DNA from: Candidatus Gastranaerophilales bacterium
Lineage (GTDB): Bacteria; Cyanobacteriota; Vampirovibrionia; Gastranaerophilales; JAILCC01
Assembly (NCBI GenBank): GCA_028696075.1
Contig: JAQVHS010000005.1
Location: forward strand, 6,656-70,655
Direction of reading: 5' to 3'
Length of the DNA: 64,000 nt
Shown here: positions 3,358 to 60,921 of the stretch, piece after piece
Numbering within the stretch: the stretch's first letter is position 1
How the letters are laid out: every line of letters starts with the position of its first letter
Notes under the pieces: generated by a model
What the model saw: only the letters and a program-made list of their open reading frames with translations
Databases searched by the model: none
Told to the model about the DNA's origin: nothing
Position numbers and translations under genes: made by a program

Positions 3358-4200
3358 ATGCCACTTTACATTAATTCTAATGTCGCCTCGATGGTTTCAC
3401 AGAGGTACTTATCGAAAAATACGGACGCTTTGGCAAAAACGTATGAAAGATTATCAAGCGGGTACCGAATAAACCATGCAGGAGACGACGCCGCCGGACT
3501 GTCCTTATCAGAGGGGTTAAAAGCCCAGGTAGCAGGAACAGAACAGGCAACCAAAAACATCCAGGACGGTATTAACATGTTGCAAATCGCAGAGGGCGGT
3601 TTTGAGATTATCGCAGACAATTTGCAAAGAATTCGCGAATTATCTGTACAAGCCGCTAACGGAACGTATGCAACAGCAGAAAGACAAGCTATGTTGAACG
3701 AAATTCAACAACGTGTTTTAGAAATCACAAGAATTTCACACACAGCTACTTACAATGGAATATCATTGTTGAGTTCCGAGGCAACAAGCATTATCCTACA
3801 AATCGGTGCAAGTACTGACGAATACTCAACTTTAAATATAAGAGATGCATTTACTACATGTACTGCAACAACTTTGGGTATTTTAATCAACGAGACAGGT
3901 TCAAGCTGGACACCGGACAAAATCCATGAATATATGGATAAGTTAGACAAAGCTATTGGAACGGTAGTACAAAGCAGGTCAATGATTGGCGCTTATCAAA
4001 ACCGTGTAGAAAGTGCTCTTGGGAACTTAACTATAATGTCAGAAAATCTGACTGCAGCTGAATCAAGAATCAGAGATACAGATATAGCCAAGGAAACATC
4101 AACACTTACTAAATATCAAATATTGCAGCAAGCATCGTCAAGTGTATTATCACAGGCGAACCAATTGTCTGCAGTAGCTCTACAGTTACTACAAGGATAG
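3358..4200 (+). CDS. fliC: flagellin
   Basis: Conserved N-terminal INHAGDDAAGLSLSEGL and C-terminal ILQQASSSVLSQANQ..LQLLQG flagellin segments. AAGGAG RBS. Short variable domain (280 aa). Confidence 0.95.
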   Translation: MPLYINSNVASMVSQRYLSKNTDALAKTYERLSSGYRINHAGDDAAGLSLSEGLKAQVAGTEQATKNIQDGINMLQIAEGGFEIIADNLQRIRELSVQAANGTYATAERQAMLNEIQQRVLEITRISHTATYNGISLLSSEATSIILQIGASTDEYSTLNIRDAFTTCTATTLGILINETGSSWTPDKIHEYMDKLDKAIGTVVQSRSMIGAYQNRVESALGNLTIMSENLTAAESRIRDTDIAKETSTLTKYQILQQASSSVLSQANQLSAVALQLLQG

Positions 4201-9566: not shown

Positions 9567-9676
9567 ATATAAGGATTTATATTAGAATACACACAATCTG
9601 TTAAAAATTATTGCGTTTCGTAAACAAATATGTATCAAACTAACACAAAATCTTAAAAAAATGGTTTAATATATCC

Positions 9677-9890
9677 AGAACAGCGCAAGCAGTGTGTGAA
9701 GCCTGAAAAGGCTTGCTAAAGAGCAAGGCTTTGGAAGGCGAAACCGTTCTACACCGCCGTTGTGAATGAATTTGCGCAAGCAAATGAATGAACGAAGCAA
9801 TCTATATTGAAACAAATTGCGACAGCAAATTTGCTTTCAATGATTGCACAGGCGGAGAACAGCGCAAGCAGTGTGTGAAGCCTGAAAAGG
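9677..9890. repeat. GC-rich structured island bounded by an exact 35-bp direct repeat
   Basis: AGAACAGCGCAAGCAGTGTGTGAAGCCTGAAAAGG occurs at 9677-9711 and 9856-9890. The interior holds several hairpins, including ATTTGC-GCAA-GCAAAT. Confidence 0.8.
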
Positions 9891-10942
9891 CAAGACGGGT
9901 GATTGGTGGAATAGTGTTAATAAACAGACTCGGGCAGAATTTTTACAATGCTCCTTCATTTAAAGCTATAGTTGTGAAGCCTCCTATAATTACTGTTGTA
10001 GGTCCTACGGAAGAAAAAAGAAAAAGGACAACCTGCCATTTTGACTTTAAAAAAATACCCCATATGCCTTGTGCATGCTGCGGGAAAGAAGTACTTACGT
10101 TCAAAGAAATTGACGGGTTTCAAAATACACTGAAAGATGCGACAGGTACTGAGTTAAGACATCATTTAAGAAAAAGATGGAACAATTACAAAGCAACCGA
10201 AAAGAAAGTAGTAAGAAAAATAATAAAGACTTCTTATGATTATGAAGATAAGAATTTGCAAGAACTATTACAAGTAACGTTTGATAATTCACGCAAAGAA
10301 TTAGTTGAAACACAAAAAAACATAATTATTAAACTAAAAAACATATCCAATAATTTAGAAGGTCCAATCAAGCCGAAGTTAAAACATTTTTTTGATAAAG
10401 CAATAGAAATCGTTGAGAGTGAAGACATAGCATTTAAAAGAAAGACTTTTTTGCAAAGTTTAGCGATGAAAGCAGCAGAAGACAAAGACCCTCGTAATAT
10501 AAAAGCTTTAACATACATATTAGCCAAAGCCGAAACAATCCCGACATCTGCCGAAGACGTTAATGCTTTTATTGTTAAATATTCCAGACGCTCACCCAAA
10601 GAAATTGCTTACAGACTTCTTTCAAGGAATGCGGCTACGGCTGAACATATCAAAGCTTTTACACGAAACGGCTTAAACGATAAATCAAATTATCTGCTTG
10701 AATGCAATAAGTGTAACGAAGCAAGGGGCAGTATTCGATTTAAAGACTGGGTAAAACAAACCCCCCAGTTTATAAATAATGTACAAAAGTTCATAGAAGA
10801 AGCAATAGCGGTAATTAAATCAGGTAAAATGAACGGTTATGAAAAGTACCCGTTAGAAGTAAAAGAAACGTTGAAACGGGAATCCGGCGGAATTATAGAC
10901 ATAGACCTGGGAGACTATGAAAAATTTTTAAGCGCAGGATGA
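9788..10942 (+). CDS. Zn-ribbon / helical / HNH nuclease-domain protein, paralog 1 (start uncertain; GTG at 9899 plausible)
   Basis: Aligns with the ORFs at 10986 and 58008. N-terminal CACCG ribbon. C-terminal HNH core TAEHIKAF..NDKSNYLLECNKCNEARG. The first 37 codons lie inside the GC-rich repeat island. Confidence 0.7.
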   Translation: MNEAIYIETNCDSKFAFNDCTGGEQRKQCVKPEKARRVIGGIVLINRLGQNFYNAPSFKAIVVKPPIITVVGPTEEKRKRTTCHFDFKKIPHMPCACCGKEVLTFKEIDGFQNTLKDATGTELRHHLRKRWNNYKATEKKVVRKIIKTSYDYEDKNLQELLQVTFDNSRKELVETQKNIIIKLKNISNNLEGPIKPKLKHFFDKAIEIVESEDIAFKRKTFLQSLAMKAAEDKDPRNIKALTYILAKAETIPTSAEDVNAFIVKYSRRSPKEIAYRLLSRNAATAEHIKAFTRNGLNDKSNYLLECNKCNEARGSIRFKDWVKQTPQFINNVQKFIEEAIAVIKSGKMNGYEKYPLEVKETLKRESGGIIDIDLGDYEKFLSAG

Positions 10943-10985
10943 TAAAAGACTTAATAGTTCAGGCAGCGGTGAAAGGTATAGCATT

Positions 10986-12053
10986 TTGAAAATTAATACT
11001 CTGTTTATCAACAATTTAGCAGCCTATCAAATATTTTTTAGCGGAGATAAAAAATATAAAAATTTTTCTGCGAAAACTTTACCTGCCGAAGATACATATG
11101 TGTCATTAAAGCAAGAGCGCCCACCCTGTACGTTTGAATTAAAAAAAGTAAAAGGCTTATGCTGCGCAGCATGCGGAAATGATGTAGTAACTTATGAAGA
11201 AAGCAAAGACTTCCAAAATCTGATTGAAAACGCAAAGGGAAAACAATTACGCAATATTTTACAAAGCAGACAGCGTTTATATAACGGGAACGAGCAAAAA
11301 ATTGTAACAAAATTACTGGGTTTATCTTCACAGCATGAAGACAAGAATATTCAACAGCTTTTTCAGGTCGCTTTTGAAGATTCAAGAAAAATTCTCGTCC
11401 AAAAACAGATTGAAACTCTTTATAAACTGAAAAGGCTAAGTAAGCTTGTACAAAATCCCGAACATAAAAGAAATCTTAAAGAGTTTATAGACAATATGAT
11501 TGAGCTTGCTCAAAGCAGAGATAAAATCTTTAAAAGAAAAGATGTAATTTATGAATTAAACAAAATTCTAAAAGCAGCAAATTCTGAAGCAGACCGTGCT
11601 GTTTTGGGTACTACAATTAAATACGCAAATTATCTGCCTACATCGTTTAACAATGAGCATGCATTTATAGTTAAATACAGCAGGCGCCGTCCCGGTGAAA
11701 TAGCGTCGATGCTGTTATCACCGCGTATGTCAACAGCCGAACATATCAAGCCTTATTCTTTAGAAGCATCTGACGATAAAAACAACTACATTATAGAGTG
11801 CAAAAAATGCAATCAGGAGCGAGGGAATATATTATTCGCCGATTGGATTAAAATGAACCCTCAAATACTGCAAAATATCAAAAAATTCATAGCCAAAACC
11901 ATAAATGCTATTAAATCCGGCAAGGTTGAAAACTTTGAAGACTACCCGATTAAAGTCAACGAAACATTAAAAGAAAGATCTGCAGGGTTAATCTATTTTT
12001 ACTTAGATGATTATCAAAAATCAATACGACAAGATAAAGAAAAAACAGGTTAG
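10986..12053 (+). CDS. Zn-ribbon / helical / HNH nuclease-domain protein, paralog 2 (TTG start)
   Basis: CAACG ribbon, FKRK and LPTS..AFIVKYSRR motifs. HNH core TAEHIKPY..DDKNNYIIECKKCNQERGN. GAAAGG RBS. Confidence 0.75.
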   Translation: MKINTLFINNLAAYQIFFSGDKKYKNFSAKTLPAEDTYVSLKQERPPCTFELKKVKGLCCAACGNDVVTYEESKDFQNLIENAKGKQLRNILQSRQRLYNGNEQKIVTKLLGLSSQHEDKNIQQLFQVAFEDSRKILVQKQIETLYKLKRLSKLVQNPEHKRNLKEFIDNMIELAQSRDKIFKRKDVIYELNKILKAANSEADRAVLGTTIKYANYLPTSFNNEHAFIVKYSRRRPGEIASMLLSPRMSTAEHIKPYSLEASDDKNNYIIECKKCNQERGNILFADWIKMNPQILQNIKKFIAKTINAIKSGKVENFEDYPIKVNETLKERSAGLIYFYLDDYQKSIRQDKEKTG

Positions 12054-12183
12054 AGTAAAAATAATTACCCCAAGAAAAACATCTGCAGAAAAAAGCTTTT
12101 GTACTATAATAGTGTTTAACAATCGTTGAAAATTTAATACCTGTTTTGATGTCGGTGTGGCACTCTGCCGAACAAAACGATTG

Positions 12184-12320
12184 CGGATTTTTGGCAGGGC
12201 GACGGCTTGCGAAGCAAGACTAGTCCCGTAAGCGCAACTAGCCGAATTGAGCGAAAACTTTTTCATTAGAAAAAAGCTGTAGCGAAATAGAAGGCTATGC
12301 GTACCCAAAAATTCAAGACG
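12184..12320 (-). mobile_element. 137-nt non-coding element with terminal inverted repeats (MITE-like or structured RNA), copy A
   Basis: Absent from the otherwise identical second repeat unit. Inserted in the loop of the CAAAACGAT/ATCGTTTTG hairpin. Ends are CGGATTTTTGG / CCAAAAATTC. Homologous to 43783-43922 in the opposite orientation. Confidence 0.55.
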
Positions 12321-12491
12321 AGTATCGTTTTGTGAGAGGGGTAGACGCGCCGAAAAGCTTTTGTACTATAATAGTGTTTAACAATCGTTGAAAATTTAAT
12401 ACCTGTTTTGATGTCGGTGTGGCACTCTGCCGAACAAAACGATTGAGTATCGTTTTGTGAGAGGGGTAGACGCGCCGAAAAGCTTTTGTAC

Positions 12492-12497
12492 TATAAT
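12492..12497 (+). promoter_or_regulatory. -10 box TATAAT of the tRNA-Leu promoter (also at 12105 and 12367 in the duplicated units)
   Basis: Perfect TATAAT about 40 nt upstream of the tRNA 5' end. The -35 element is not clear. Confidence 0.45.
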
Positions 12498-12537
12498 AGT
12501 GTTTAACAATCGTTGAAAATTTAATACCTGTTTTGAT

Positions 12538-12618
12538 GTCGGTGTGGCGGAATGGTAGACGCGCACGTTTGAGGGGCGTGTGGAGAAATCTGTGGGGGTT
12601 CAAGTCCCCCCACCGACA
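12538..12618 (+). tRNA. tRNA-Leu (anticodon GAG), class II with long variable arm
   Basis: Manual cloverleaf: acceptor GTCGGTG/CACCGAC, D region GGCGGAATGGTAGACGCGC, anticodon stem CACGT/GCGTG with loop TTGAGGG, T arm GGGGG-TTCAAGT-CCCCC, discriminator A. No encoded CCA. Confidence 0.9.
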
Positions 12619-12863
12619 TTTTTAAAATTTGATAAATTAAATTAATCGGACTTAGAACCCCGGTTGTGTCTTTCGACACAACGGTGGTTGCCGATACTCG
12701 GCATCCTAAGGCGTAATGCTCGGTGTCCATCACCTCGCAAACGCCTCAAGACAACTCCCCCCACCGACATTTTTAAAATTTGATAAATTAAATTAATCGG
12801 ACTTAGAACCCCGGTTGTGTCTTTCGACACAACGGTGGTTGCCGATACTCGGCATCCTAAGGC
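12605..12863 (+). repeat. two tandem 108-nt copies of tRNA-Leu 3' end plus a structured downstream module
   Basis: Exact copies at 12605-12712 and 12756-12863 (period 151). Each holds a roughly 65-nt module (12648-12712, 12799-12863) with closing stem CTTAG/CTAAG and hairpins GTTGTGTC-TTTC-GACACAAC and TGCCGA-TAC-TCGGCA. Confidence 0.9.
12718..12769 (+). pseudogene. possible internally deleted tRNA-Leu remnant
   Basis: GCTCGGTGTCC resembles the tRNA 5' end. TCAAG..TCCCCCCACCGACA matches the T-arm/acceptor 3' end. The anticodon region is missing. Confidence 0.3.
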
Positions 12864-43511: not shown

Positions 43512-43529
43512 TCAAACATTTTCTATACA

Positions 43530-44017
43530 GCCGCCAAGACAGTATTCCCTACGCTTCGCTCCGGTCAGCCTGGTGTAGATTCGCCGTGTCACAACAGTTA
43601 AACACCATGTTCTAAAATCTTGCAACAATCCGACCCGCGTCAGCGGCTGTCTTGGATTATGCACAACTCATAATGCTTAGTTTCATTTCGACATTTTGCT
43701 ATCGCAAAAGTCTTCATTGCACTGCATTATTCGAACAGACGGCATTCCCTACGCTTCGCTCCGGTCAGCCTACCGCAAATCCGCTGTCTTGGATTTTTGG
43801 GCGTGCATAGCCTGCCATTTCACTACAACATTTTTCTGACAAAAAAGTTTCCGTTCAATTCGGCTATTGCTCTTACGGGTTGGGTTCGGCTTTGCCTCAC
43901 ACGGCACCCTTCCAAAAATCCGCTGTCTTGGATTATGCGGGTCGTCGGAAAACTCATCGCTTCCCTCCGACTTACGGCGTTCCTTCACTATGTTCAGTCA
44001 GCCTACCGCAAATCCGC
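43530..44017. repeat. cluster of degenerate GC-rich repeats
   Basis: ATTCCCTACGCTTCGCTCCGGTCAGCCT x2 (43544, 43744) plus a degenerate third copy (43979). CAGCCTACCGCAAATCCGC x2. CCGCTGTCTTGGATT x3 and its inverted copy CCAAGACAG at 43533. Confidence 0.75.
43783..43922 (+). mobile_element. 140-nt inverted-repeat element, copy B (homolog of 12184-12320)
   Basis: Ends GGATTTTTGG / CCAAAAATCC. Shared core CATAGCC..TTTTTCT..AAAAAG..TCAATTCGGCTA..CTTACGGG. Flanked by a 19-nt direct repeat AAATCCGCTGTCTTGGATT. Confidence 0.55.
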
Positions 44018-44041
44018 AAAAAAAGAGGCACTGTGTGCCTC
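44018..44041 (-). terminator. rho-independent terminator (minus strand) downstream of murJ operon
   Basis: GAGGCAC / GTGCCTC stem with 3-nt loop, followed on the minus strand by TTTTTTT. Confidence 0.6.
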
Positions 44042-51925: not shown

Positions 51926-53665
51926 ATGATAGTTAATTCCTCCTCTAATAAATATTCTTTCAAGGGCAGTGATTTTATCGCAAATTATGCGCAAAATTTT
52001 ATCACTAAACCAATCCCTGAAGTAAAACAGGAACAAGCACCCGCAGCAAATACCGCTTTGACGGGTAATGACTTTATTGCAAATTATGCACAGGTTTTAG
52101 TAAACAGGACAAAGCCTGCGGTAAAAACTGAACAAGCTCAAACACCACAAATTGCGTGGAAGAATGATTTGCGCTCTATGTTTGAAAATAATAAAGTAGT
52201 TATGCATGCCTTAATTCCAAGAACCTTCAATGCCAAAGACAAAGACGGCAACCACCTTATAGAAGACGGCGAAGAGCAGGGAACTTTTTACAATGCGGTT
52301 GAAAGGCTTGATGAATTAAAAAAATACGGCGTAAATACTCTTCACCTTCTGCCTATTAATCCTCCCGGAACAACAGGAGCGTTTGGTACCGCCGGCAGTC
52401 TTTATGCACCAAAAGATTATCTTCAGATTGATGAAACCCTGGGCGGCAAAGAAGGGTTTAAATACTTCGTAGATGAATGTCATAAAAAAGGTATAAGAGT
52501 TATGGTAGACTTGCCAAGCTGTGCTTCTTTAGACTTGTTTAACGCAAGACCCGATTTGATGGCTGTAGATGAGCGCGGATACGCAGAAACACCGCAAGGA
52601 TGGCAAGATATCAGAATGTTTGACCCTTATACGGACAAAGATAAGAAAATTTTAAATAAAGCTTTGGTGGATTATCATAAACAATTTGTAGATATGCTGC
52701 TTGAATGTGGCGCTGACGGTATCAGAGCAGACGTTGCAAGAGCGAAACCCGCAGAGTTTTGGGATGAGATAATTTCTTACACAAGAAGCAAAAATCCTGA
52801 ATTTGCATTCCTGGCAGAAACTTATACCTATGAAGACGCTTCGCCGATGTTAAACATGCCCCATGACAGACCTGAAGAGCTTCTGGCTGTGGGTTTTGAT
52901 TCATATTACGGACAATATCACATCTTCCCGTTACGCCAAAAAGCGAGTTACCTTCACGATTATGTTGTAGAAAACCTTGATATGAGCCACAGATTGCCAA
53001 AAGGGAAGTCGTTAATAGGTTCATTTGCCACTCACGATGACAAAAGCCCTATATCAAACGGCGGAGTGCCTTATTGTAATCTGACAACAGGTTTACAGTT
53101 TACTTTGCCCATGACTAATCCTTATTTTGTTACAGGCTTTGAATCCGGTGATACATACATTTATCCTTACAAAGATAAACCCGCTCAAAAAAGCGCCACT
53201 GATTCTTTCCAATATATTGTCCACTCTCAAATGGTAGATATATTTAACCTTTCAAGAAAACCCGGCGGCGAACACCCTGAAATAGGTGATTTTATGGGCA
53301 GAATGGCTCAAATAAGAAAAGACCACGAAGATTTAATAGCTAAAGGTTCTTACATTCCTTTCAAAGATACCCAAAATAAAAATGATAAAATTATTGCTTA
53401 TGCAAGACATAAAGACGGTAAAACCCTTTTGACAATTGCAAACAGAGATGTTAATGCAGTGCAAAAAGGTAAAATTACCATCCCCGGACTAAAAGCTTCA
53501 CAACCTTTGGTAGATTTAACCCTTCCATACGGGCAGCCAAGCAGATACACGGCGCTAAATAATACCGTTGAAGTTGAATTAGGACCGGCAAGAGTTCATG
53601 TGTTTGAAATAGATACTCCTGATATAGAAAAAAAAGCAAAAGAAGTTTACAAGCAAAATATTTAA
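51926..53665 (+). CDS. GH13 alpha-amylase-family glycoside hydrolase with duplicated N-terminal peptide motif
   Basis: GH13 regions GIRADVARA (nucleophile Asp), FLAETY (acid/base Glu) and FATHDD. The N-terminus carries two copies of DFIANYAQ-x(15)-EQA. Confidence 0.8.
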   Translation: MIVNSSSNKYSFKGSDFIANYAQNFITKPIPEVKQEQAPAANTALTGNDFIANYAQVLVNRTKPAVKTEQAQTPQIAWKNDLRSMFENNKVVMHALIPRTFNAKDKDGNHLIEDGEEQGTFYNAVERLDELKKYGVNTLHLLPINPPGTTGAFGTAGSLYAPKDYLQIDETLGGKEGFKYFVDECHKKGIRVMVDLPSCASLDLFNARPDLMAVDERGYAETPQGWQDIRMFDPYTDKDKKILNKALVDYHKQFVDMLLECGADGIRADVARAKPAEFWDEIISYTRSKNPEFAFLAETYTYEDASPMLNMPHDRPEELLAVGFDSYYGQYHIFPLRQKASYLHDYVVENLDMSHRLPKGKSLIGSFATHDDKSPISNGGVPYCNLTTGLQFTLPMTNPYFVTGFESGDTYIYPYKDKPAQKSATDSFQYIVHSQMVDIFNLSRKPGGEHPEIGDFMGRMAQIRKDHEDLIAKGSYIPFKDTQNKNDKIIAYARHKDGKTLLTIANRDVNAVQKGKITIPGLKASQPLVDLTLPYGQPSRYTALNNTVEVELGPARVHVFEIDTPDIEKKAKEVYKQNI

Positions 53666-53907: not shown

Positions 53908-55797
53908 ATGACATCAATCCAAAATAATATGAGTTATGATTTTAACAAAGACGGCAAAGTAACTTATGATGACTATGAATATGCCGTAGAACAAAAAATC
54001 ACTTTGACTACGGATGAAGTGAACGCATTTGATACGTTGAAGTTGAATGAAATAGTCAATCAAATCGAAGAAGATAACGGTGAAATTGAAACAGCTATTG
54101 TTAATGAAGAAAAAGCATTAAGTTTTGCTACAAATTTATCGGAACCGCCTGATACCAATGATGCTAAAACGTTAAATGCATTACAGCTTATAGCTGCCGA
54201 TTTGTCAGCCTATATCAAAAATTGTGCGCAATCTATAAAATATTTGGAAAGCGTCAACGAAGATTTAAAAATTGAGTTAAAGGAAGTTGAAAATGAAATT
54301 AATATAGCCAAAGAAAAATATGAAGCTAAGACGAAAGAGCTTGCTCAATATCAAACTGAATTGACACATGAATTACAAAGGGCGCTGACAATTTCCGAAG
54401 AAGAAACGGATGCTATGAATGCCCGTTCAAAAAATGCAATAGATAAAGCCATATCGGATTACAAGGATGGTAACTATCCGAACCAAGATCTTCAAGATGT
54501 TATTACCGCTAAATTATCAAATATAGGTATTGATAAAACCCGAATTGATGCAGCATTCAGCATAGCGGACTCAACAGCGAGCAATATAAGAAGATGCGTA
54601 GCGGGTATTGAAACTATAACTTATAATATAAAAACAGCTAATGAAAAATATAATTCAATAAATGCACCTTATAACAACAATGTAAATTTGATAAATTCTC
54701 TGTTATCGTCTTCAAAAAAAGCGACAGACAGTTTCCAAAACGGATTTACCGCAAGACAAAATTTAAGGCAAGCATTGGTTGATAAATATTACGTGTCAAC
54801 AGGCGGTGTTAAACCATCGTCCATATCAAACCCTCAAGTACAAATGCTTAATGAATTTTTGAAGAATAGAGAACTTGATAATATGCCTTTTTCTGATGCA
54901 AGAGTCTTATTAATACAGATATTCGGAGATTGTATTTCTTATAATGAAAGTAAAAATAAATTTACTATTCCAAAAGGGCATGGTGCAGCGGCCAATATCT
55001 ACAACGCTTTAGTAGCTTCATTAAAGGTAAACTATAATACTGACGTTGTCTTTATAGACGAATTAACAGGTGAAGCAGATGAACAAAGCGGAAGTGACAT
55101 AAAAACTAAACGCCGCGACCCTATAGGGTTTACATATAATAATACCCAATATGAATTCATCGCAGACAAAAATAATGACGGTAAATTTAATAACGAAAAT
55201 GAATTTCTCGGAGCAGACAAAGGCTGGAATGAAATGATAGCCTATGATGTTGACGGTAACGGATTAATTGAGGGCGAAGAGCTTAAACAACTTAAACTTC
55301 TCGGAATATCTGAAGACGGCAAATATTCATTCACCAGTGCCGATAAAATCGGAATTGACAAAATTGACCTCAATAGCTATAACAAAATCAGCGAGAAGCA
55401 AATTAACAACAATATATTAGAAGGTACTTATACACTTTCAATCAACGGTGAAGATGTTGACGGTATACAAACTTTTGATACGGTAAAAAATCTGGAAAAT
55501 ACTTTTTCCACTGTATTTGATCAAGAAATATCCGATGAAAACCAAAGTTATAAAGAAAATCCTTTTATGGCAGAATTTGCCGGAAAAGTAAATACTAAAA
55601 CAGTTTTATCTGATACGGATTTTGATAAATCTAAAACCGAAAACACCGTAGATATAAACACTTCAACTGCTGAATCAAAAGCCAAAAACTATACAGTAAC
55701 TGCTCAGGATAAAAGTTTAAGCGAACCCAAAGATACTTCAAATGCGGAAGAACCGGCGGTAGCAGAAGAAAATACGGTAGAAAAGAAGTATAAATAA
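53908..55797 (+). CDS. EF-hand / coiled-coil protein, tandem paralog 1 (629 aa)
   Basis: Ca-binding loops DFNKDGKVTYDD, DKNNDGKFNNEN and DVDGNGLIEGEE. Long coiled coil. AAGGAG RBS. Confidence 0.7.
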   Translation: MTSIQNNMSYDFNKDGKVTYDDYEYAVEQKITLTTDEVNAFDTLKLNEIVNQIEEDNGEIETAIVNEEKALSFATNLSEPPDTNDAKTLNALQLIAADLSAYIKNCAQSIKYLESVNEDLKIELKEVENEINIAKEKYEAKTKELAQYQTELTHELQRALTISEEETDAMNARSKNAIDKAISDYKDGNYPNQDLQDVITAKLSNIGIDKTRIDAAFSIADSTASNIRRCVAGIETITYNIKTANEKYNSINAPYNNNVNLINSLLSSSKKATDSFQNGFTARQNLRQALVDKYYVSTGGVKPSSISNPQVQMLNEFLKNRELDNMPFSDARVLLIQIFGDCISYNESKNKFTIPKGHGAAANIYNALVASLKVNYNTDVVFIDELTGEADEQSGSDIKTKRRDPIGFTYNNTQYEFIADKNNDGKFNNENEFLGADKGWNEMIAYDVDGNGLIEGEELKQLKLLGISEDGKYSFTSADKIGIDKIDLNSYNKISEKQINNNILEGTYTLSINGEDVDGIQTFDTVKNLENTFSTVFDQEISDENQSYKENPFMAEFAGKVNTKTVLSDTDFDKSKTENTVDINTSTAESKAKNYTVTAQDKSLSEPKDTSNAEEPAVAEENTVEKKYK

Positions 55798-55943
55798 AAA
55801 TTGCTAAGATTTTTTCCATTCCTCCAAATGGTTGTCGAAATATTAAATAATTAAGAAATGTTACAATTTTTCTGTTTGTTGAAATATCAGGCAATATATA
55901 ACCTTTATATATAATATGTACGGGTAAAATAAGGAGTAATGGC

Positions 55944-57827
55944 ATGACATCAATTCAAAATAATATGAGTTATGATTTCAACAAAGACGGCAAAGTAACT
56001 TATGATGACTATGAATATGCCGTAGAACAAAAAATCACTTTGACTACGGATGAAGTGAACGCTTTCGATACGTTGAAGTTGAATGAAATAGTCAATCAAA
56101 TCGAAGAAGACAACGGTGAAATTGAAACAGCTATTGTTAATGAAGAAAAAGCGTTAAAATTTGCTCAAAATTTGTCAACGCCGCCCAATACTGATGATGC
56201 CAAAACATTAAACGAATTACAGCTTATAGCTGCCAATTTATCAGCCTATATCAAAAATTGTGCGCAATCTATAAAATATTTGGAAAGCGTAAATGTTGAT
56301 TTAAAAGCTGACTTGAATAAAATAGAAAATGAATTAAATATAGCAAAAGAACAATATGAAGCTAAGACGGTAGAGCTTGCTCAATATCAATCTGAATTGA
56401 CACGTGAATTGCAAAAGGCGCTGACAATTTCCGAAGAAGAAACGGATGCTATGAATGCCCGTTCAAAAAATGCAATAGATAAAGCCATATCGGATTACAA
56501 GGATGGTAACTATCCGAATCAAGATCTTCAAGCTGTTATTACCGCTAAATTATCAAATATAGGTATTGATAAAACCCTTATTAATGCGGCATTTAGTAAT
56601 GCGGATTCTGCGTCCAGTAACATTAGAAGATGTGTAGCAGGGATTGAAACTATAACTTATAATATAAAAACAGCTAATGTTGAATACAATTCTGTTAATA
56701 CTAAGTACAATGCAAATGTTACTTCGGTGAATTCACTATTATCTGCTTCAAGAAAAGCAGCCGATAGCTTCCAAAACGGATTTACCGTAAGGCAAAATTT
56801 AAGACAGACTCTTATTAATACTTATTATACCGCACCGACCGGCAGCGACCCCGCTTCAACAAGTAATGCACAAGTACAAATGCTTAGTGAATTTTTGAAT
56901 AATAAAGAGCTTGATAATATGCCTCTTTCCGATGCAAAGGTGCTATTGCCTCAATTATTTGGCAGCTGCGTTGCTTATAATGAAAATACAAACACATTTA
57001 GTATCCCTAAAGGGCATGACTCAGCGGCAAATATTTTCAACGCTCTTGTAGTTTCATTAAATAATTACAATACCAACGTTGCTTTTATAGACGAATTAAC
57101 AGGTGAAGAAGAGGGCGAGGAAGTCGGTACCACACGGACAGATCCCATAGGGTTTACATATAATAATACCCAATATGAGTTCATCGCAGATAAAAATAAT
57201 GACGGTAAATTTAATAATGCAAGCGAATTTCTCGGAGCAGAAGACGGCTGGAATGAAATGATAGCCTACGATGCTGACGGTAACGGATTAATTGAGGGCG
57301 AAGAGCTTAAACAACTTAAACTTCTCGGAATATCTGCAGACGGTAAATATTCTTTCACCAGCGCAGATAAAGCCGGAATTGACAAAATTGACCTCAATAG
57401 CTATAACAAAATCAGCGAGGAGCAAATTAACAACAATATATTAGAAGGTACTTATACACTTTCAATCAACGGTGAAGATGTCGATGGCATACAAACTTTT
57501 GATACTGCAAAGAACCTTGAAAACACTTTTGCTAACGTCTTTGATAAAACAATAACCGATAAAACAGAAAATTATGTTGAAAATCCGTTTATGGAAGAAT
57601 TTGTAGAAAAAGTAAATACAAGATCAGTTTTAGCCAAGACTGAAACCAACAAAACCCAAAATGAAGATACTATAAATGCAAACGTTGCAAAAGCAGAAGA
57701 AAAAACAAAAAACTATACGGCAACCGAGCAAGATAAAAAACTAAACGAGTCAAAAGATACTTCAAATGCGGAAGAACCTGTAGTAGCAGAAGAAAATACG
57801 GTAGAAAAGAAGAAAAAAGAAGTATAA
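55944..57827 (+). CDS. EF-hand / coiled-coil protein, tandem paralog 2 (627 aa)
   Basis: Same architecture and loops as paralog 1 (DADGNGLIEGEE). Confidence 0.7.
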   Translation: MTSIQNNMSYDFNKDGKVTYDDYEYAVEQKITLTTDEVNAFDTLKLNEIVNQIEEDNGEIETAIVNEEKALKFAQNLSTPPNTDDAKTLNELQLIAANLSAYIKNCAQSIKYLESVNVDLKADLNKIENELNIAKEQYEAKTVELAQYQSELTRELQKALTISEEETDAMNARSKNAIDKAISDYKDGNYPNQDLQAVITAKLSNIGIDKTLINAAFSNADSASSNIRRCVAGIETITYNIKTANVEYNSVNTKYNANVTSVNSLLSASRKAADSFQNGFTVRQNLRQTLINTYYTAPTGSDPASTSNAQVQMLSEFLNNKELDNMPLSDAKVLLPQLFGSCVAYNENTNTFSIPKGHDSAANIFNALVVSLNNYNTNVAFIDELTGEEEGEEVGTTRTDPIGFTYNNTQYEFIADKNNDGKFNNASEFLGAEDGWNEMIAYDADGNGLIEGEELKQLKLLGISADGKYSFTSADKAGIDKIDLNSYNKISEEQINNNILEGTYTLSINGEDVDGIQTFDTAKNLENTFANVFDKTITDKTENYVENPFMEEFVEKVNTRSVLAKTETNKTQNEDTINANVAKAEEKTKNYTATEQDKKLNESKDTSNAEEPVVAEENTVEKKKKEV

Positions 57828-57845: not shown

Positions 57846-57886
57846 AGAGGCGCAGAAGATTTTTAACTTCTGCGCCTCTTGATTTT
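57846..57886 (+). terminator. rho-independent terminator
   Basis: 13-bp perfect stem AGAGGCGCAGAAG / CTTCTGCGCCTCT with 8-nt loop, then TGATTTT. Confidence 0.7.
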
Positions 57887-58007: not shown

Positions 58008-59069
58008 ATGAAACAAAGACTATCAGCTTTTGATGACTTTCACAAAAAGTATTTTGTGATAAATAACTATTTTCTGTCCTTTAATTCTGACGAGATTTTT
58101 AAATTTGAACCGCAAAATAATACCTGCTCATCAAAAAGCAGGTATTATTTTGAGCTGAAAAAAATAGTTAACCTTCCTTGTCCTTGCTGCGGAAGGATTA
58201 TGACAACCAGAGATGAAATGAACGATTTTGTAGAAAATATTAAAATGGCAAAAGGTCAGACTTTAATTGAGGAGTTAACAAAATACGAGGGGCGCATAAA
58301 AGGTATAGAAAAACAGGTATTAAAAAAAGTTAAAATTAACGCAAAAAAACACCCCGACAAAAATTTAAAAGAGCTTTTTAAACAAATGTACAGAAATTCC
58401 ATACAACAGCTTGAAAATTCACAACAAAAAGTTATAGCTAAAGTTATGAAATTATCCGACGGGCTTGAGGGTCGGACTTATATAACAGTAAAAAAGGATA
58501 TAAAAACCGTAAACACCCTTTTGCAAAAAAGGCGTAACTCACAAGTTTTCAAAAGAAAAACTTTTATTACAAGTTTTTATAAATTGATAATGGAAGAAGA
58601 AAACCCTCGTAATAAAAAAATTCTTGAACTTATTGCCCAAAAAGCCAAAGGTTTGCCGACATCAGGTAACAGCACGGATGCGTTTATTGTTAAGTATCAT
58701 AGACGACGAATTGACGAAATCGCCCAACGATTGCTTGACGCTTCCCTTGCCAGCACAGAACATGTAAATCCCCGCAGCTGCGGCGGGGTAAATGACCCTT
58801 CTAACTATCTTGTACAGTGTAAGTATTGCAACAGCGAAAGAAGTTCGCTAGAGTACAAAGACTGGCTAAAAAAACACCCGGAAATGAAAAGAAATATTCA
58901 GGTTCATATAGATAAAGTGATATCTTTAATTCTTAACGAACAAATAAACGGTTATGATTTTTATCCTTTGGTTATAAAATATACACTTGTAAAAGAGTCA
59001 AAAGGCTTGCTTGATATTAATATTGAAAATATTATAGATTATTTAAAGTATAAGTACCTTGCCGCTTAA
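58008..59069 (+). CDS. Zn-ribbon / helical / HNH nuclease-domain protein, paralog 3
   Basis: CPCCG ribbon, FKRKTF and LPTS..AFIVKYHRR motifs. HNH core STEHVNPRSCGGVNDPSNYLVQCKYCNSERS, the most canonical of the three. Confidence 0.8.
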   Translation: MKQRLSAFDDFHKKYFVINNYFLSFNSDEIFKFEPQNNTCSSKSRYYFELKKIVNLPCPCCGRIMTTRDEMNDFVENIKMAKGQTLIEELTKYEGRIKGIEKQVLKKVKINAKKHPDKNLKELFKQMYRNSIQQLENSQQKVIAKVMKLSDGLEGRTYITVKKDIKTVNTLLQKRRNSQVFKRKTFITSFYKLIMEEENPRNKKILELIAQKAKGLPTSGNSTDAFIVKYHRRRIDEIAQRLLDASLASTEHVNPRSCGGVNDPSNYLVQCKYCNSERSSLEYKDWLKKHPEMKRNIQVHIDKVISLILNEQINGYDFYPLVIKYTLVKESKGLLDINIENIIDYLKYKYLAA

Positions 59070-59713
59070 AAATATTTTCTCGCAAAACCGTATACTTTAC
59101 CTATAATGTATAATTTGTTAATTTCTTCTTTCCTCAAAATAATTTGTGCATAGTCTTTATTATCAGAAGTTATAATGACTTCATTAATATTTTTGGACAG
59201 ACGTTTAACAAAAATTTCATTCTCATACATAAAAATATAAATATGATTATCGATGATTTGTTCGTTTCCGTAATGTTCTATCAAAACCAAATCCCTGTCC
59301 TTGATTTCAGGCTCCATGCTATTTCCCCGGATTTTTATAACGGAGTATTTTTTACCCGGTCTAATTTGCTTAGGCATCAATTCTAAAGGAAGAGCAATTT
59401 TTTCTGAATTTTCAGATGCTGCAATGCCCCCGATTCCGCAAGATGCATAGATATCATAATAAAAATCTAACGTAACTAAATTACATTTTAATGTATTTTT
59501 TTCACTATCTTCATCGGTAAAATAAGATAAAGGAACTCTAAAATTATTACAAAATATCCTCAATTTATTTAACTGCGGTTCATTTATACCATTTTCCCAG
59601 TGAGATATGGTTTTCTGATCGACGCCTATCGCCCTTGCTACAACTTCCTGTGAAAGCCTTAGTTCTTTCCTTTTCAGCTTAAAACGCCGAGATATTGTAT
59701 TTACCATTTCCAT
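59066..59713 (-). CDS. CI/LexA-like repressor (XRE HTH + S24 peptidase domain)
   Basis: N-terminal LRLSQEVVARAIGVDQKTISHWENG HTH. C-terminal GNSMEP (catalytic Ser) and FVKRL (catalytic Lys). Confidence 0.85.
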   Translation of the reverse strand: MEMVNTISRRFKLKRKELRLSQEVVARAIGVDQKTISHWENGINEPQLNKLRIFCNNFRVPLSYFTDEDSEKNTLKCNLVTLDFYYDIYASCGIGGIAASENSEKIALPLELMPKQIRPGKKYSVIKIRGNSMEPEIKDRDLVLIEHYGNEQIIDNHIYIFMYENEIFVKRLSKNINEVIITSDNKDYAQIILRKEEINKLYIIGKVYGFARKYF

Positions 59714-59734
59714 TCCTTTTTCTTATAAATGCCC

Positions 59735-59763
59735 TTGACAATTATTACAAATTATCCTATTAT
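59735..59763 (+). promoter_or_regulatory. sigma-70-type promoter TTGACA-N17-TATTAT, divergent from the repressor gene
   Basis: TTGACA at 59735-59740, 17-nt spacer, TATTAT at 59758-59763. About 85 nt upstream of the 59848 ORF. Confidence 0.55.
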
Positions 59764-59847
59764 TGTTCCAACATGCATGTCATAAAAATAATAATAAAAA
59801 AAAATTGTTTTTACAAGTAAATTAATTAGAAATTGTGGAGTATGAAA

Positions 59848-60147
59848 ATGTATCAAAAAACGAAAAAATGTGCGTATTGCACTGCCTTTTTGAGGTGCGA
59901 AATTTGCGGCGCTCAGACCTGCGACAATACTGCGGAAGAGAATTATTTAATTTATCAAACAGGGGAAAAAAGTCTTTTTTACAACTTTTTGGAGAAAAAA
60001 ATTTACAAAAACTCCTTAACTAATGAGTTTAAGGAAATTGATTTTCAAACAGCAATCAGGGAAATTGATACCTTGCCGGATAAAACGTCAGACTGGAAAC
60101 GGCTGCAAATTATCAATATAGCAACAGATTTAGGGTTGTTGGCTTAA
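59848..60147 (+). CDS. hypothetical protein with N-terminal CxxC..CxxC zinc ribbon (99 aa)
   Basis: GGAG RBS 7 nt upstream of the ATG at 59848. CAYC..CEIC motif. Confidence 0.5.
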   Translation: MYQKTKKCAYCTAFLRCEICGAQTCDNTAEENYLIYQTGEKSLFYNFLEKKIYKNSLTNEFKEIDFQTAIREIDTLPDKTSDWKRLQIINIATDLGLLA

Positions 60148-60329
60148 TGAGAATTAAACAAATTATTAATGAATTGGATAATATTGATAGAGTAATTTTA
60201 TCAATAAGTGATTTGCTGGAATCTGCAGATAAGGCAAAAGATATTACTAAAATACAACAGGAAATTAATCAATTAACTGACAAATTAATACGATTAAAAG
60301 AAACAGTTAACGAAAAAAGGAGAATTTAG
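60147..60329 (+). CDS. small coiled-coil protein (60 aa)
   Basis: Start overlaps the upstream stop (TAATG). Heptad-like sequence. Confidence 0.4.
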   Translation: MRIKQIINELDNIDRVILSISDLLESADKAKDITKIQQEINQLTDKLIRLKETVNEKRRI

Positions 60330-60333
60330 GGAT

Positions 60334-60420
60334 ATGAAACGTGATATTTACGGCTATTTAGAAGCCTTGGGGTTACTTTTAATATTGATAATCTATTACA
60401 TATATTTTGTAACCGTGTAA
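60334..60420 (+). CDS. possible 28-aa single-TM peptide (MKRDIYGYLEALGLLLILIIYYIYFVTV)
   Basis: AAGGAG RBS upstream. Hydrophobic core. Below the ORF-track cutoff, translated by eye. Confidence 0.3.
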   Translation: MKRDIYGYLEALGLLLILIIYYIYFVTV

Positions 60421-60432
60421 AGGAGTAATATT

Positions 60433-60921
60433 GTGATAAATTTAGACGAAGCGGCAAAAATGCTAAAAATGAAAACTACTACTTTGCGTTATTGGTTGAA
60501 AAAAAATATCCTTGATTGTAAAGAAAACGGCTGTACTTTTGATTTGAATAACTTAACTTCAAAAACAAAAGTGTCAAAAACAATACAGACCCAAAGAACA
60601 ATAAAAAGGTATTATGAACAAATTATGATAGAAAATCCAAATATATTTAAAAAAATCTTTGAAAATTACATGGAATTCGTAAAAAAGATAAAAAGTATAA
60701 ACAAAATGTGCAAAAACCTTAACTGGACAACCTCTGCTATTGATTGTTATTTGGCAGGATTGAACTGCTCAAAATGCTTTAATGAGCGGATATGCAGTAA
60801 ATTTACCAAGGAGGGGCAAACTCCTCCCATGAAAAAAACTGTCCTGCTGCTTATTAAAAACAGAGGAATTCCTGTATTTACAAGTCCTTTTGAAGAAGAA
60901 GAATCTATTCGTCTTCTATGA
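60433..60921 (+). CDS. HTH (excisionase/MerR-like) protein with Cys-rich C-terminal half (GTG start)
   Basis: N-terminal LDEAAKMLKMKTTTLRYWLKKN resembles HTH_17/AlpA-type motifs. AAGGAG RBS. Confidence 0.5.
   Translation: MINLDEAAKMLKMKTTTLRYWLKKNILDCKENGCTFDLNNLTSKTKVSKTIQTQRTIKRYYEQIMIENPNIFKKIFENYMEFVKKIKSINKMCKNLNWTTSAIDCYLAGLNCSKCFNERICSKFTKEGQTPPMKKTVLLLIKNRGIPVFTSPFEEEESIRLL

Follow-up and report, generated by a model that had tools for sequence, protein, structure and literature searches.

The window analysed here is a stretch of 64,000 nucleotides from a Candidatus Gastranaerophilales bacterium (GenBank assembly GCA_028696075.1, contig JAQVHS010000005.1, positions 6,656 to 70,655 of the forward strand). 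It carries three forward-strand open reading frames (ORFs), 9788-10942 (W1), 10986-12053 (W2) and 58008-59069 (W3), that encode proteins of one HNH family. With a probability of about 0.5, we consider these proteins to be stand-alone, metal-dependent HNH endonucleases, encoded stably in the chromosome, that belong to a family restricted to one lineage and serve the DNA metabolism of their own cell. The two parts of this reading do not carry equal weight. The catalytic and architectural part, a metal-dependent nuclease with a split zinc finger, is strongly favoured. A metal-dependent nuclease is the most likely assignment because the catalytic tetrad is conserved, the beta-beta-alpha model is confident and the surrounding helices are basic. 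The host-function part, an enzyme that works alone on the nucleic acids of its own cell, is tentative and falls slightly short of even odds. It is preferred because synteny is stable, the paralogs are old, and the searches gave no partner, immunity gene, phage, defence or RNA signal.

The HNH core and the predicted split zinc finger

W1, W2 and W3 can be aligned over ~300 amino acids (aa), with 74 invariant columns. Their pairwise identities in BLASTP are 44% (W1-W2), 38% (W1-W3) and 33% (W2-W3). When every six-frame ORF of 80 aa or longer was searched with a hidden Markov model (HMM) of the family, exactly these three were found in the window. The first-pass annotation of this DNA had described a tandem pair and a third gene of one family, and the ORFs, the alignment, BLASTP and the HMM search all confirm this. 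The three proteins share one layout. From the N-terminus, a disordered tail is followed by a CxxCG zinc knuckle (residues 95-99 in W1, 60-64 in W2 and 58-62 in W3), a basic all-helical region of ~185-190 aa, the HNH core and, at the C-terminus, a further helical part. The C-terminal HNH motif that had been read from the sequence holds in all three proteins as EH-[IV]-x(13)-NY-x4-C-x2-CN, with a spacer of 13 residues. The other motifs needed small corrections. CxxCG is present in every copy, but the first Cys of the preceding C-x-F-x-[FL]-KK is Tyr in W3. FKRK and PTS-x5-AFIVKY-x-RR occur in W1, W2 and W3, but the supposed LPTS reads IPTS in W1, and W3 has DKNLKEL in place of DKN[LI]Q[EQ]L.

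W1 is annotated by NCBI at 9788-10942 as a hypothetical protein (MDD3593880.1). The ORF is real, but ATG 9788 is probably not its start because residues 1-42 counted from this ATG have a counterpart in no homolog and overlap a 36-nt direct repeat within a GC-rich structured leader, and because the in-frame GTG 9914 gives MLINRL..., which agrees with the family N-terminus M-[KR..L]-[IV]. Homolog comparison and the family HMM point to a probable coding sequence of 342 aa at 9914..10942 (+); translation could instead begin at the in-frame GTG 9899. The W1 knuckle, CACCG, was located by motif scan at 10070..10084 (+), and its catalytic core, EH-x13-N-x4-CxxC-N, by alignment, Pfam and motif scan at 10643..10717 (+). 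W2 (10986..12053, +; 355 aa; MDD3593881.1, annotated 'HNH endonuclease domain-containing protein') was identified by HMM and starts with a TTG that gives MKINTLF, in agreement with the family N-terminus. Its tail, residues 1-47 (10986..11126, +), carries the family motifs and has a predicted local distance difference test score (pLDDT) below 50. It is followed by the knuckle CAACG at 11163..11177 (+), where C60 and C63 would form the first half of the split finger, as suggested by covariation and by alignment to AceCas9 'CMYCG'. The basic all-helical insertion comprises residues 70-247 in the AlphaFold model (11193..11726, +; isoelectric point (pI) 9.8) and includes FKRK at 11529-11540 (+) and PTS-x5-AFIVKY at 11637-11678 (+). 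The beta-beta-alpha-metal core, with E252, H253, N267, C272, C275 and N276, lies at 11739..11813 (+) according to Pfam, profile alignment, AlphaFold and conservation. The C-terminal helical part, residues 284-355 (11835..12050, +), was defined by AlphaFold and alignment. It has conserved P292, Q299 and Y320, and up to about residue 334 it aligns to the AceCas9 helices downstream of the HNH core. W3 (58008..59069, +; 353 aa; hypothetical protein MDD3593929.1), also identified by the family HMM, has its knuckle, CPCCG, at 58179..58193 (+; motif scan) and its catalytic core at 58758..58832 (+; Pfam, motif scan and Foldseek). W3 forms its own transcription unit, with a strong terminator hairpin upstream of it at 57846-57879. 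A W3 ortholog with 62-64% identity is found in a metagenome-assembled genome (MAG) from horse gut. Promoter scans gave hits at chance level only.

Profile libraries recognise the core to different degrees. PF01844 (HNH) gives 25.1 bits for W2 against a cut-off of 21.4, and 16.4 and 15.6 bits for W1 and W3, both below it. HNH_5 gives 25.2 bits for W3 against a cut-off of 27.5. Longer relatives score 28-34 bits in Pfam HNH, above the cut-off, and the matches among 37 members at E <= 0.01 fall to HNH_4 (14), HNH_5 (8) and HNH (7). The 'HNH endonuclease' families of PHROGs match the core at E = 1e-7 to 1e-8. Judged by these matches, the HNH assignment appears weak for each single protein and solid for the family as a whole. 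The NCBIfam model for IscB (NF040563) reaches 20-25 bits against a cut-off of 175, in model positions 207-258 only, and the Cas9d model reaches 19.7 bits against 375. No model in Pfam or NCBIfam spans the whole protein, and these curated libraries see the HNH core alone, weakly. The earlier view that the family cannot be assigned to anything known beyond this core has thus held.

A profile of 20 members searched against PDB sequences found type II-C Cas9 HNH domains as its best matches (AceCas9 8d2k, E = 9e-6), and the alignment to AceCas9 extends into the helices past the core. Relatives keep the catalytic residues, as the first-pass annotation had expected. Among 170 sequences aligned to the family HMM, H253 is present in 167, Glu or Asp at 252 in 167, N267 in 169 and N276 in 168, and the H-N-N residues and the preceding acidic residue are all present in W1, W2 and W3. 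AlphaFold modelled W2 from 20 sequences with a pLDDT of 86.5 and a predicted template modelling score (pTM) of 0.77, residues 48-355 being mostly above 90. W3, from 37 sequences, reached a pLDDT of 88.0 and a pTM of 0.80. Both models have the same topology. Residues 1-45/47 are disordered, the knuckle is a small hairpin, and long helices continue to about residue 247. These are followed by strand-strand-helix at the HNH motif (strands 248-253 and 268-272 and helix 273-279 in W2; strands 247-252 and 267-271 and helix 272-278 in W3; pLDDT above 90 in both) and then by four more helices. Foldseek, run against PDB and BFVD, gave local HNH matches only, with GeoCas9 HNH (8f43) at probabilities of 0.96 and 0.80, followed by Gme HNH (4h9d), NmeCas9, EcoKMcrA, ScoMcrA and phage HNH proteins. 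No global match was found in either database, and the BFVD matches were HNH cores only. Fold comparison of the two models thus matched the HNH core alone and reached no characterised family, in line with what had been anticipated. The helical insertion is basic (pI 9.1-10) and found no sequence or structural match outside the family in the PDB profile search or in Foldseek against PDB and BFVD.

The same 20-member profile bears on the zinc finger. Its knuckle, 'LkklkkipcpycGvem', aligns with AceCas9 LLELYDCHCMYCGAPI, a segment that contains the 'CHCMYCG' knuckle and ends 7 residues before the Cas9 'DH'. In W1, W2 and W3, which have all four zinc-ligand Cys, 187-189 residues separate the knuckle from the catalytic motif. 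The two Cys pairs covary. The four positions could be aligned in 145 sequences, of which 59 have both pairs, 77 have neither pair complete, 9 have the N-terminal pair only and none has the C-terminal pair only (Fisher exact p = 2e-31, relatedness ignored). The C-terminal pair occurs in 0 of the 77 sequences that are without the N-terminal pair. Some members replace C272 with His, a residue that can also bind zinc. Even when His is counted, a complete C-terminal Cys/His pair without the N-terminal CxxC was never seen among the 145 members. Parsimony on a neighbour-joining tree indicates several independent transitions in the state of the Cys. Because the pairs covary, and because the AceCas9 knuckle sits 7 residues before its DH, the helical region is best explained as an insertion into one zinc finger, as the first-pass annotation had proposed. 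The sequence evidence supports a helical lobe that separates the first CxxC of a single finger from its catalytic His, and one predicted zinc site most likely bridges both ends of this lobe. Members with the Cys resemble Pfam HNH and HNH_5, and Cys-less members match the Cas9-type HNH_4 (14 of 37). The HNH domain of SpCas9 is zinc-free. The division within the family appears to parallel that between the zinc-bearing type II-C Cas9 and IscB and the zinc-free SpCas9.

In the scheme that we infer, catalysis, zinc binding, DNA as the substrate and the cellular role are all predicted. Following established HNH chemistry, H253 (W2 numbering) would act as the general base, Glu/Asp252 and Asn276 would hold the catalytic Mg2+ or Mn2+, and Asn267 would brace the hairpin. 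One structural zinc, held by C60 and C63 of the N-terminal knuckle and by C272 and C275 beside the active site, would fasten the ~185-aa basic helical lobe onto the catalytic core. The lobe and the C-terminal helices would most likely form the nucleic-acid surface and choose the substrate, and the near-invariant FKRK and AFIVK-Y-x-RR patches of the lobe are candidate contacts, as judged by their conservation. The lobe would be a modular unit, with 2 to 9 copies in other members. The enzymes would act alone, with no guide RNA or partner protein, and would be inherited vertically as old, diverged paralogs. Their role would most likely be structure- or site-specific nicking or cleavage in the cell's own DNA metabolism, with different paralogs acting on different substrates.

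Distribution, variants and inheritance of the family

An exhaustive profile search of 1.84 billion cluster representatives found 631 clusters (50% identity) at E<1e-30; with the limit relaxed to E<1e-10 the number rose to 1016. A word-indexed search had given 19 proteins only, which the exhaustive search showed to be a sensitivity artefact. A scan of one genome per GTDB species, with a pattern from a 10-sequence alignment, found 31 loci in 31 assemblies. These are labelled Gastranaerophilales, Melainabacteria, 'Vampirovibrio', 'Cyanobacteria bacterium' or gut and rumen bins, and a few (Muribaculaceae, Sphaerochaetaceae) are probably mislabelled. The family is so far restricted to MAGs of the gut Melainabacteria/Gastranaerophilales type. 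We found nothing in the published literature on HNH proteins in Gastranaerophilales or Melainabacteria.

Several architectural variants occur outside the window. Forms of 440-490 aa have a partly duplicated helical module, P0020 and P0127 have two complete modules, and P0062 (1351 aa) and P0121 have up to nine helical modules ahead of one HNH. Forms of 740-780 aa carry a Lys/Glu-rich, coiled-coil-like C-terminal extension of ~400 aa. In the long relatives, no further Pfam domain was detected beyond coiled coil or repeated helical modules. P0078 is another such variant, alongside P0062, P0121, P0020 and P0035.

The W1-W2 pair lies between a gene for a MurT-like ligase on one side and a tRNA-Leu and peptidyl-tRNA hydrolase on the other. 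W3 lies between two tandem proteins with EF-hand motifs and a CI/LexA-like repressor with small helix-turn-helix (HTH) genes. No RuvC, ATPase, methyltransferase, integrase or terminase partner adjoins the window genes, as had been reported for this DNA. Clustering of neighbouring ORFs across 33 homolog loci gave no recurring partner gene and no transposase. Loci with precomputed annotation have metabolic or housekeeping neighbours, which differ between subfamilies. Some neighbours recur within subfamilies, such as a CheR-like gene at 8 loci and, at 6 loci each, a MetRS-like gene and a further membrane-protein ORF; none is common to different subfamilies. Across 6-8 species-level genomes the housekeeping genes next to an ortholog stay the same, as would be expected of orthologs inherited in place. 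Tandem pairs of family genes are found in the window and at L009 and L031. W1 and W2 represent an old local duplication because they are each other's closest relatives at 44% identity, and with identities of 33-44% the window paralogs as a whole appear to be old.

Several points weigh against a role in the DNA metabolism of the host. This role is argued mainly by excluding others. Several paralogs per genome, fast divergence, coiled-coil extensions of ~400 aa and a conserved disordered tail are unusual for housekeeping nucleases, and the same traits fit targeted or exported proteins at least equally well. A few members are without the catalytic His, and P0035 has lost it in both modules. On the architectural side, the evidence for the split finger is evolutionary, in the form of covariation, and the meeting of the four Cys in space is a prediction.

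Alternative roles and neighbouring elements

The first-pass annotation had suggested a selfish or homing, defence or RNA-associated role. Conserved synteny, the lack of a PADLOC signal, near-absence from IMG/VR and short intergenic gaps all speak against it. It had also linked the family with repeats, tRNA loci and mobile DNA, of which the comparative survey shows essentially nothing. The alternatives are considered below, beginning with one that the first-pass annotation did not raise.

The N-terminal tail begins M-[KR]-[IV]-x-[PSA]-[IV] and ends with [VI]-S-F-x-G, ~15 residues ahead of the knuckle. It is disordered in the W2 and W3 models, yet both motifs are conserved across the family. A similar pattern, M-K/R-I-x-x-I ... 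[VIY]-[SN]-[FY]-x-G, heads unrelated proteins in the same genomes. These were found by pattern and include a GH13-like protein in the window (51926-53665), an 889-aa protein without a Pfam match beside the L003 homolog (L003 6539-9208), a Zeta_toxin/AAA_33 protein (L001 11942-12922), hydrolase-like proteins (L014 7725-8636 and L016 10303-11187) and a further protein (L025 115-723). By regular expression the pattern was counted in 9 of 290 non-family genes, in ~6 independent families, against 1.7 +/- 1.25 in shuffles. The shared pattern thus appears to be above chance but weak. It could make the HNH proteins targeted or exported cargo, with the tail as a lineage-specific leader of extracellular DNases, bacteriocin-like toxins or effectors. 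The tail with its two conserved motifs, the recurrence of the pattern on unrelated proteins, and the multi-copy, fast-diverging nature of the family, with long coiled-coil tails in some members, all fit such cargo. We nevertheless regard it as rather unlikely. No Sec, Tat or lipoprotein signal is visible by eye in the N-terminal sequences, and we found no secretion system that would match the tail. The leader pattern spans few residues, and AT-rich genomes have many proteins that begin with 'MKI'. Stable housekeeping synteny is atypical of toxin cassettes, and downstream of the genes no small ORF that could be an immunity gene is conserved beyond close orthologs. The lack of such an ORF also led us to reject a toxin-immunity cassette. 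A more specific form of the proposal is more doubtful still. It holds that the tail is an undescribed targeting or export leader of gut Melainabacteria, shared with kinase-, hydrolase- and glycosidase-like enzymes, and that the HNH proteins are diversified delivered nucleases (effectors or bacteriocin-like toxins) in which the repeatable helical lobe sets the target. If the N-terminal pattern is real, it would be a shared targeting or export signal and would strengthen the case for delivered nucleases.

A restriction-like or anti-phage nuclease would cut foreign DNA, with the helical lobe sensing modification or structure as in McrA. Defence systems commonly use a stand-alone HNH enzyme that carries additional sensor domains, and this speaks for such a nuclease here, as do the local fold matches to EcoKMcrA and ScoMcrA. 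W3 adjoins the CI/LexA-like repressor and small HTH genes, and the L003 homolog lies 0.7-4.5 kb from an island with AAA_14, Prim-Pol and integrase genes. A defence role is nonetheless unlikely. PADLOC-DB gave no match for W1 or W3, a weak one for W2 (E = 0.003-0.018) and none across the family. There is no methyltransferase or ATPase partner, and housekeeping neighbours are kept among species. Defence genes, by contrast, are usually found in islands and are present in some genomes and missing from others. Two side observations concern the surroundings of W3. Directly upstream are two tandem paralogs of 629 and 627 aa (53908-57827) with near-identical N-termini, low-complexity centres and weak EF-hand (calcium-binding-like) matches. 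Downstream, 59066-60921 holds a CI/LexA-like repressor (HTH_3 and Peptidase_S24), divergent small ORFs and a MerR/HTH_17-like protein, and may be a prophage or island remnant.

The leading idea of the first-pass annotation, a free-standing homing endonuclease or other selfish mobile gene able to spread by cleaving sites that lack it, has become very improbable. The genes are indeed stand-alone, multi-copy and sometimes tandem, their HNH core has PHROG 'HNH endonuclease' matches, though weak (best E = 2e-8), and 4 of ~36 loci have a tRNA gene no more than 500 bp downstream. However, the paralogs are merely 33-44% identical, orthologs occupy the same site in many species, and family genes interrupt no other genes, introns or inteins. 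No inverted repeats longer than 26 nt or with more than 81% match pair across W1-W2. The family is also nearly absent from the 2.9 million viral contigs of IMG/VR, where two matches were found, both limited to the HNH region. With this near-negative result, and with Foldseek matches in BFVD to HNH cores only, a phage origin was rejected.

The tRNA genes near family members are each different, namely tRNA-Glu at L002 (11274-11349), tRNA-Gln at L013 (7370-7440), tRNA-Lys at L036 (7093-7167) and tRNA-Leu(GAG) in the window (12537-12619). No tRNA lies within 500 bp at 30 of 34 other loci. The proximity in 4 of ~36 loci exceeds what tRNA density alone would give, and we read it as a mild hot-spot effect and not as a functional link. 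At L001 and L007, an insertion of ~3 kb with a Zeta_toxin gene stands between the ortholog and the same tRNA-Glu. The tRNA-Leu region of the window (12058-12863) is itself rearranged. Two extra copies of the promoter region and first 11 nt precede the gene. In them the D-loop 'GGAAT' is swapped for a 42-nt hairpin-forming insert, and the copy stops after the D-arm. A second copy of the last 13 nt of the tRNA with 93 nt of downstream sequence follows on the 3' side. These duplications could be a genuine local event or a MAG assembly artefact. They are short-range and begin just past the W2 stop codon. No extra copy of the tRNA-Leu 3' end was found on the far side of the W1-W2 pair. The pair is therefore not an island bounded by att-like repeats, and its integration at the tRNA was ruled out on this ground.

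An RNA-guided or RNA-associated nuclease akin to IscB, IshB or Cas9, using an adjacent structured RNA, is extremely improbable. HNH domains of Cas9, IscB and Cas9d are the top sequence matches from PDB and NCBIfam, the Cys-less members match the Cas9-type HNH_4, and structured GC-rich segments flank the W1-W2 pair. Against this, the IscB model scores far below its cut-off and covers the HNH core only, and no RuvC (Pfam), PLMP domain, TnpA or CRISPR array was found. Rfam, at gathering and E-value thresholds, found only tRNAs around both loci and no HEARO or omega RNA. At four homolog loci with called genes, 58-260 bp separate the family gene from its neighbours, which leaves no room for a gene of omega-RNA size. 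The structured segments are not shared either. When the W1 leader, the post-W2 region and the sequence upstream of W3 were compared with 39 loci by BLASTN, no element next to homologs turned out to be shared.

The GC-rich structured 5' leader of W1 (9567..9913, +) has a fold z of -3.6 (9660-9915) and includes an exact 36-nt direct repeat (9677-9712 and 9856-9891, 179 nt apart). It is probably non-coding although the 9788 ORF start falls inside it, and it may act in cis as a regulatory leader or be a small RNA. It has no Rfam match and is absent next to every other family member examined. Beside W2, a GC-rich element of ~137 nt (12183-12319, +) is inserted in the first tRNA-Leu pseudo-copy. The first-pass annotation took such elements to fit a selfish, defence or RNA-associated nuclease, a view that the distribution of this one does not support. 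A 77% identical copy lies at 43786-43923 (-), where related units follow one another in a region that is free of ORFs and not near any paralog. W3 has no element of this type. By regular expression the window has one copy at 12.2 kb and three at 43.6-44.0 kb. The only other locus with the element is L035, which has one related unit (3818-3903), 2 kb from the family gene. The units are 92-137 nt long, begin AGCGGATTT and end AATCCAAGAC, and at least three are consecutive within 43520-44020 (-), in the 770-bp ORF-free region. Their closing stem shows a compensatory change (GGATTTTTGG/CCAAAAATCC vs GGATTTGCGG/CCGCATAATCC). The element has no Rfam match. It is a dispersed repeat unlinked to the HNH family and may be an undescribed small structured RNA or a miniature repeat.

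Comparison with known systems

The structure-based description given here applies to a sizeable family of at least 631 clusters at 50% identity. Two of the three window copies are annotated as hypothetical proteins and the third only by its HNH domain. The proteins would constitute a lineage-specific, multi-copy nuclease set in uncultured gut Melainabacteria and could bear on DNA metabolism or on cell-cell interactions. They do not form a new class of RNA-guided or mobile nuclease, and the reach of the finding is moderate unless the idea of an N-terminal leader holds.

The closest known relatives, in both sequence and fold, are the HNH domains of type II-C Cas9 and IscB (AceCas9 8d2k; GeoCas9 8f43). 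They have the same beta-beta-alpha-metal fold, the same D/E-H...N...N tetrad with spacings of 14 and 9 residues, the same CxxC...CxxC ligands and similar post-core helices. The tetrad of SpCas9 is D839-H840-N854-N863, and its H-x13-N-x8-N spacing is identical in the family. As among Cas9 lineages, there are members of the family in which all four Cys are gone and the catalytic residues are kept, so that the loss of zinc ligands between Cas9 lineages recurs here inside one family. The similarity is, however, limited to ~80-100 residues at E ~1e-5. The HNH of the family is not embedded in RuvC, and there is no guide RNA, REC lobe, protospacer adjacent motif (PAM)-interacting domain or IS200/605 context. 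The first CxxC lies ~188 residues before the catalytic His here and ~7 there, with a family-specific helical lobe in between. IshB proteins are HNH-only relatives of IscB that are encoded by IS200/605 elements, have ~180 aa and are associated with omega-RNA (PMC11610941). Like the family described here, they are HNH nucleases without RuvC. The family proteins are twice their size, and transposon encoding and omega-RNA were not found for them.

Small free-standing HNH proteins (PF01844/PF14279; the Mn-dependent nicking enzyme Gme HNH, 4h9d; phrog_2214) share the core, the CCCC finger and the single-gene organisation. They have ~100-200 aa and a contiguous zinc finger, to which the family adds a disordered tail of 45 aa, a helical insertion of 185 aa (up to nine times) and a C-terminal part of 70 aa. 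Unlike the phage HNH proteins of phrog_2214, the family is not phage-borne. McrA-type enzymes (EcoKMcrA 6ghc, ScoMcrA 5zmm) are likewise stand-alone polypeptides in which a further, non-catalytic domain accompanies the HNH core, and they give weak local fold matches. There is no sequence similarity to them outside the core, and the family does not sit in defence islands. The sensor domains of McrA are N-terminal to an intact HNH finger, whereas the helical domain of the family would lie inside the finger. The HNH zinc finger thus appears to tolerate a domain of ~190 residues between its halves, one that can be repeated several-fold. The family is a large, lineage-restricted HNH variant with a domain inside its predicted zinc finger, a new architecture built on a familiar catalytic fold.

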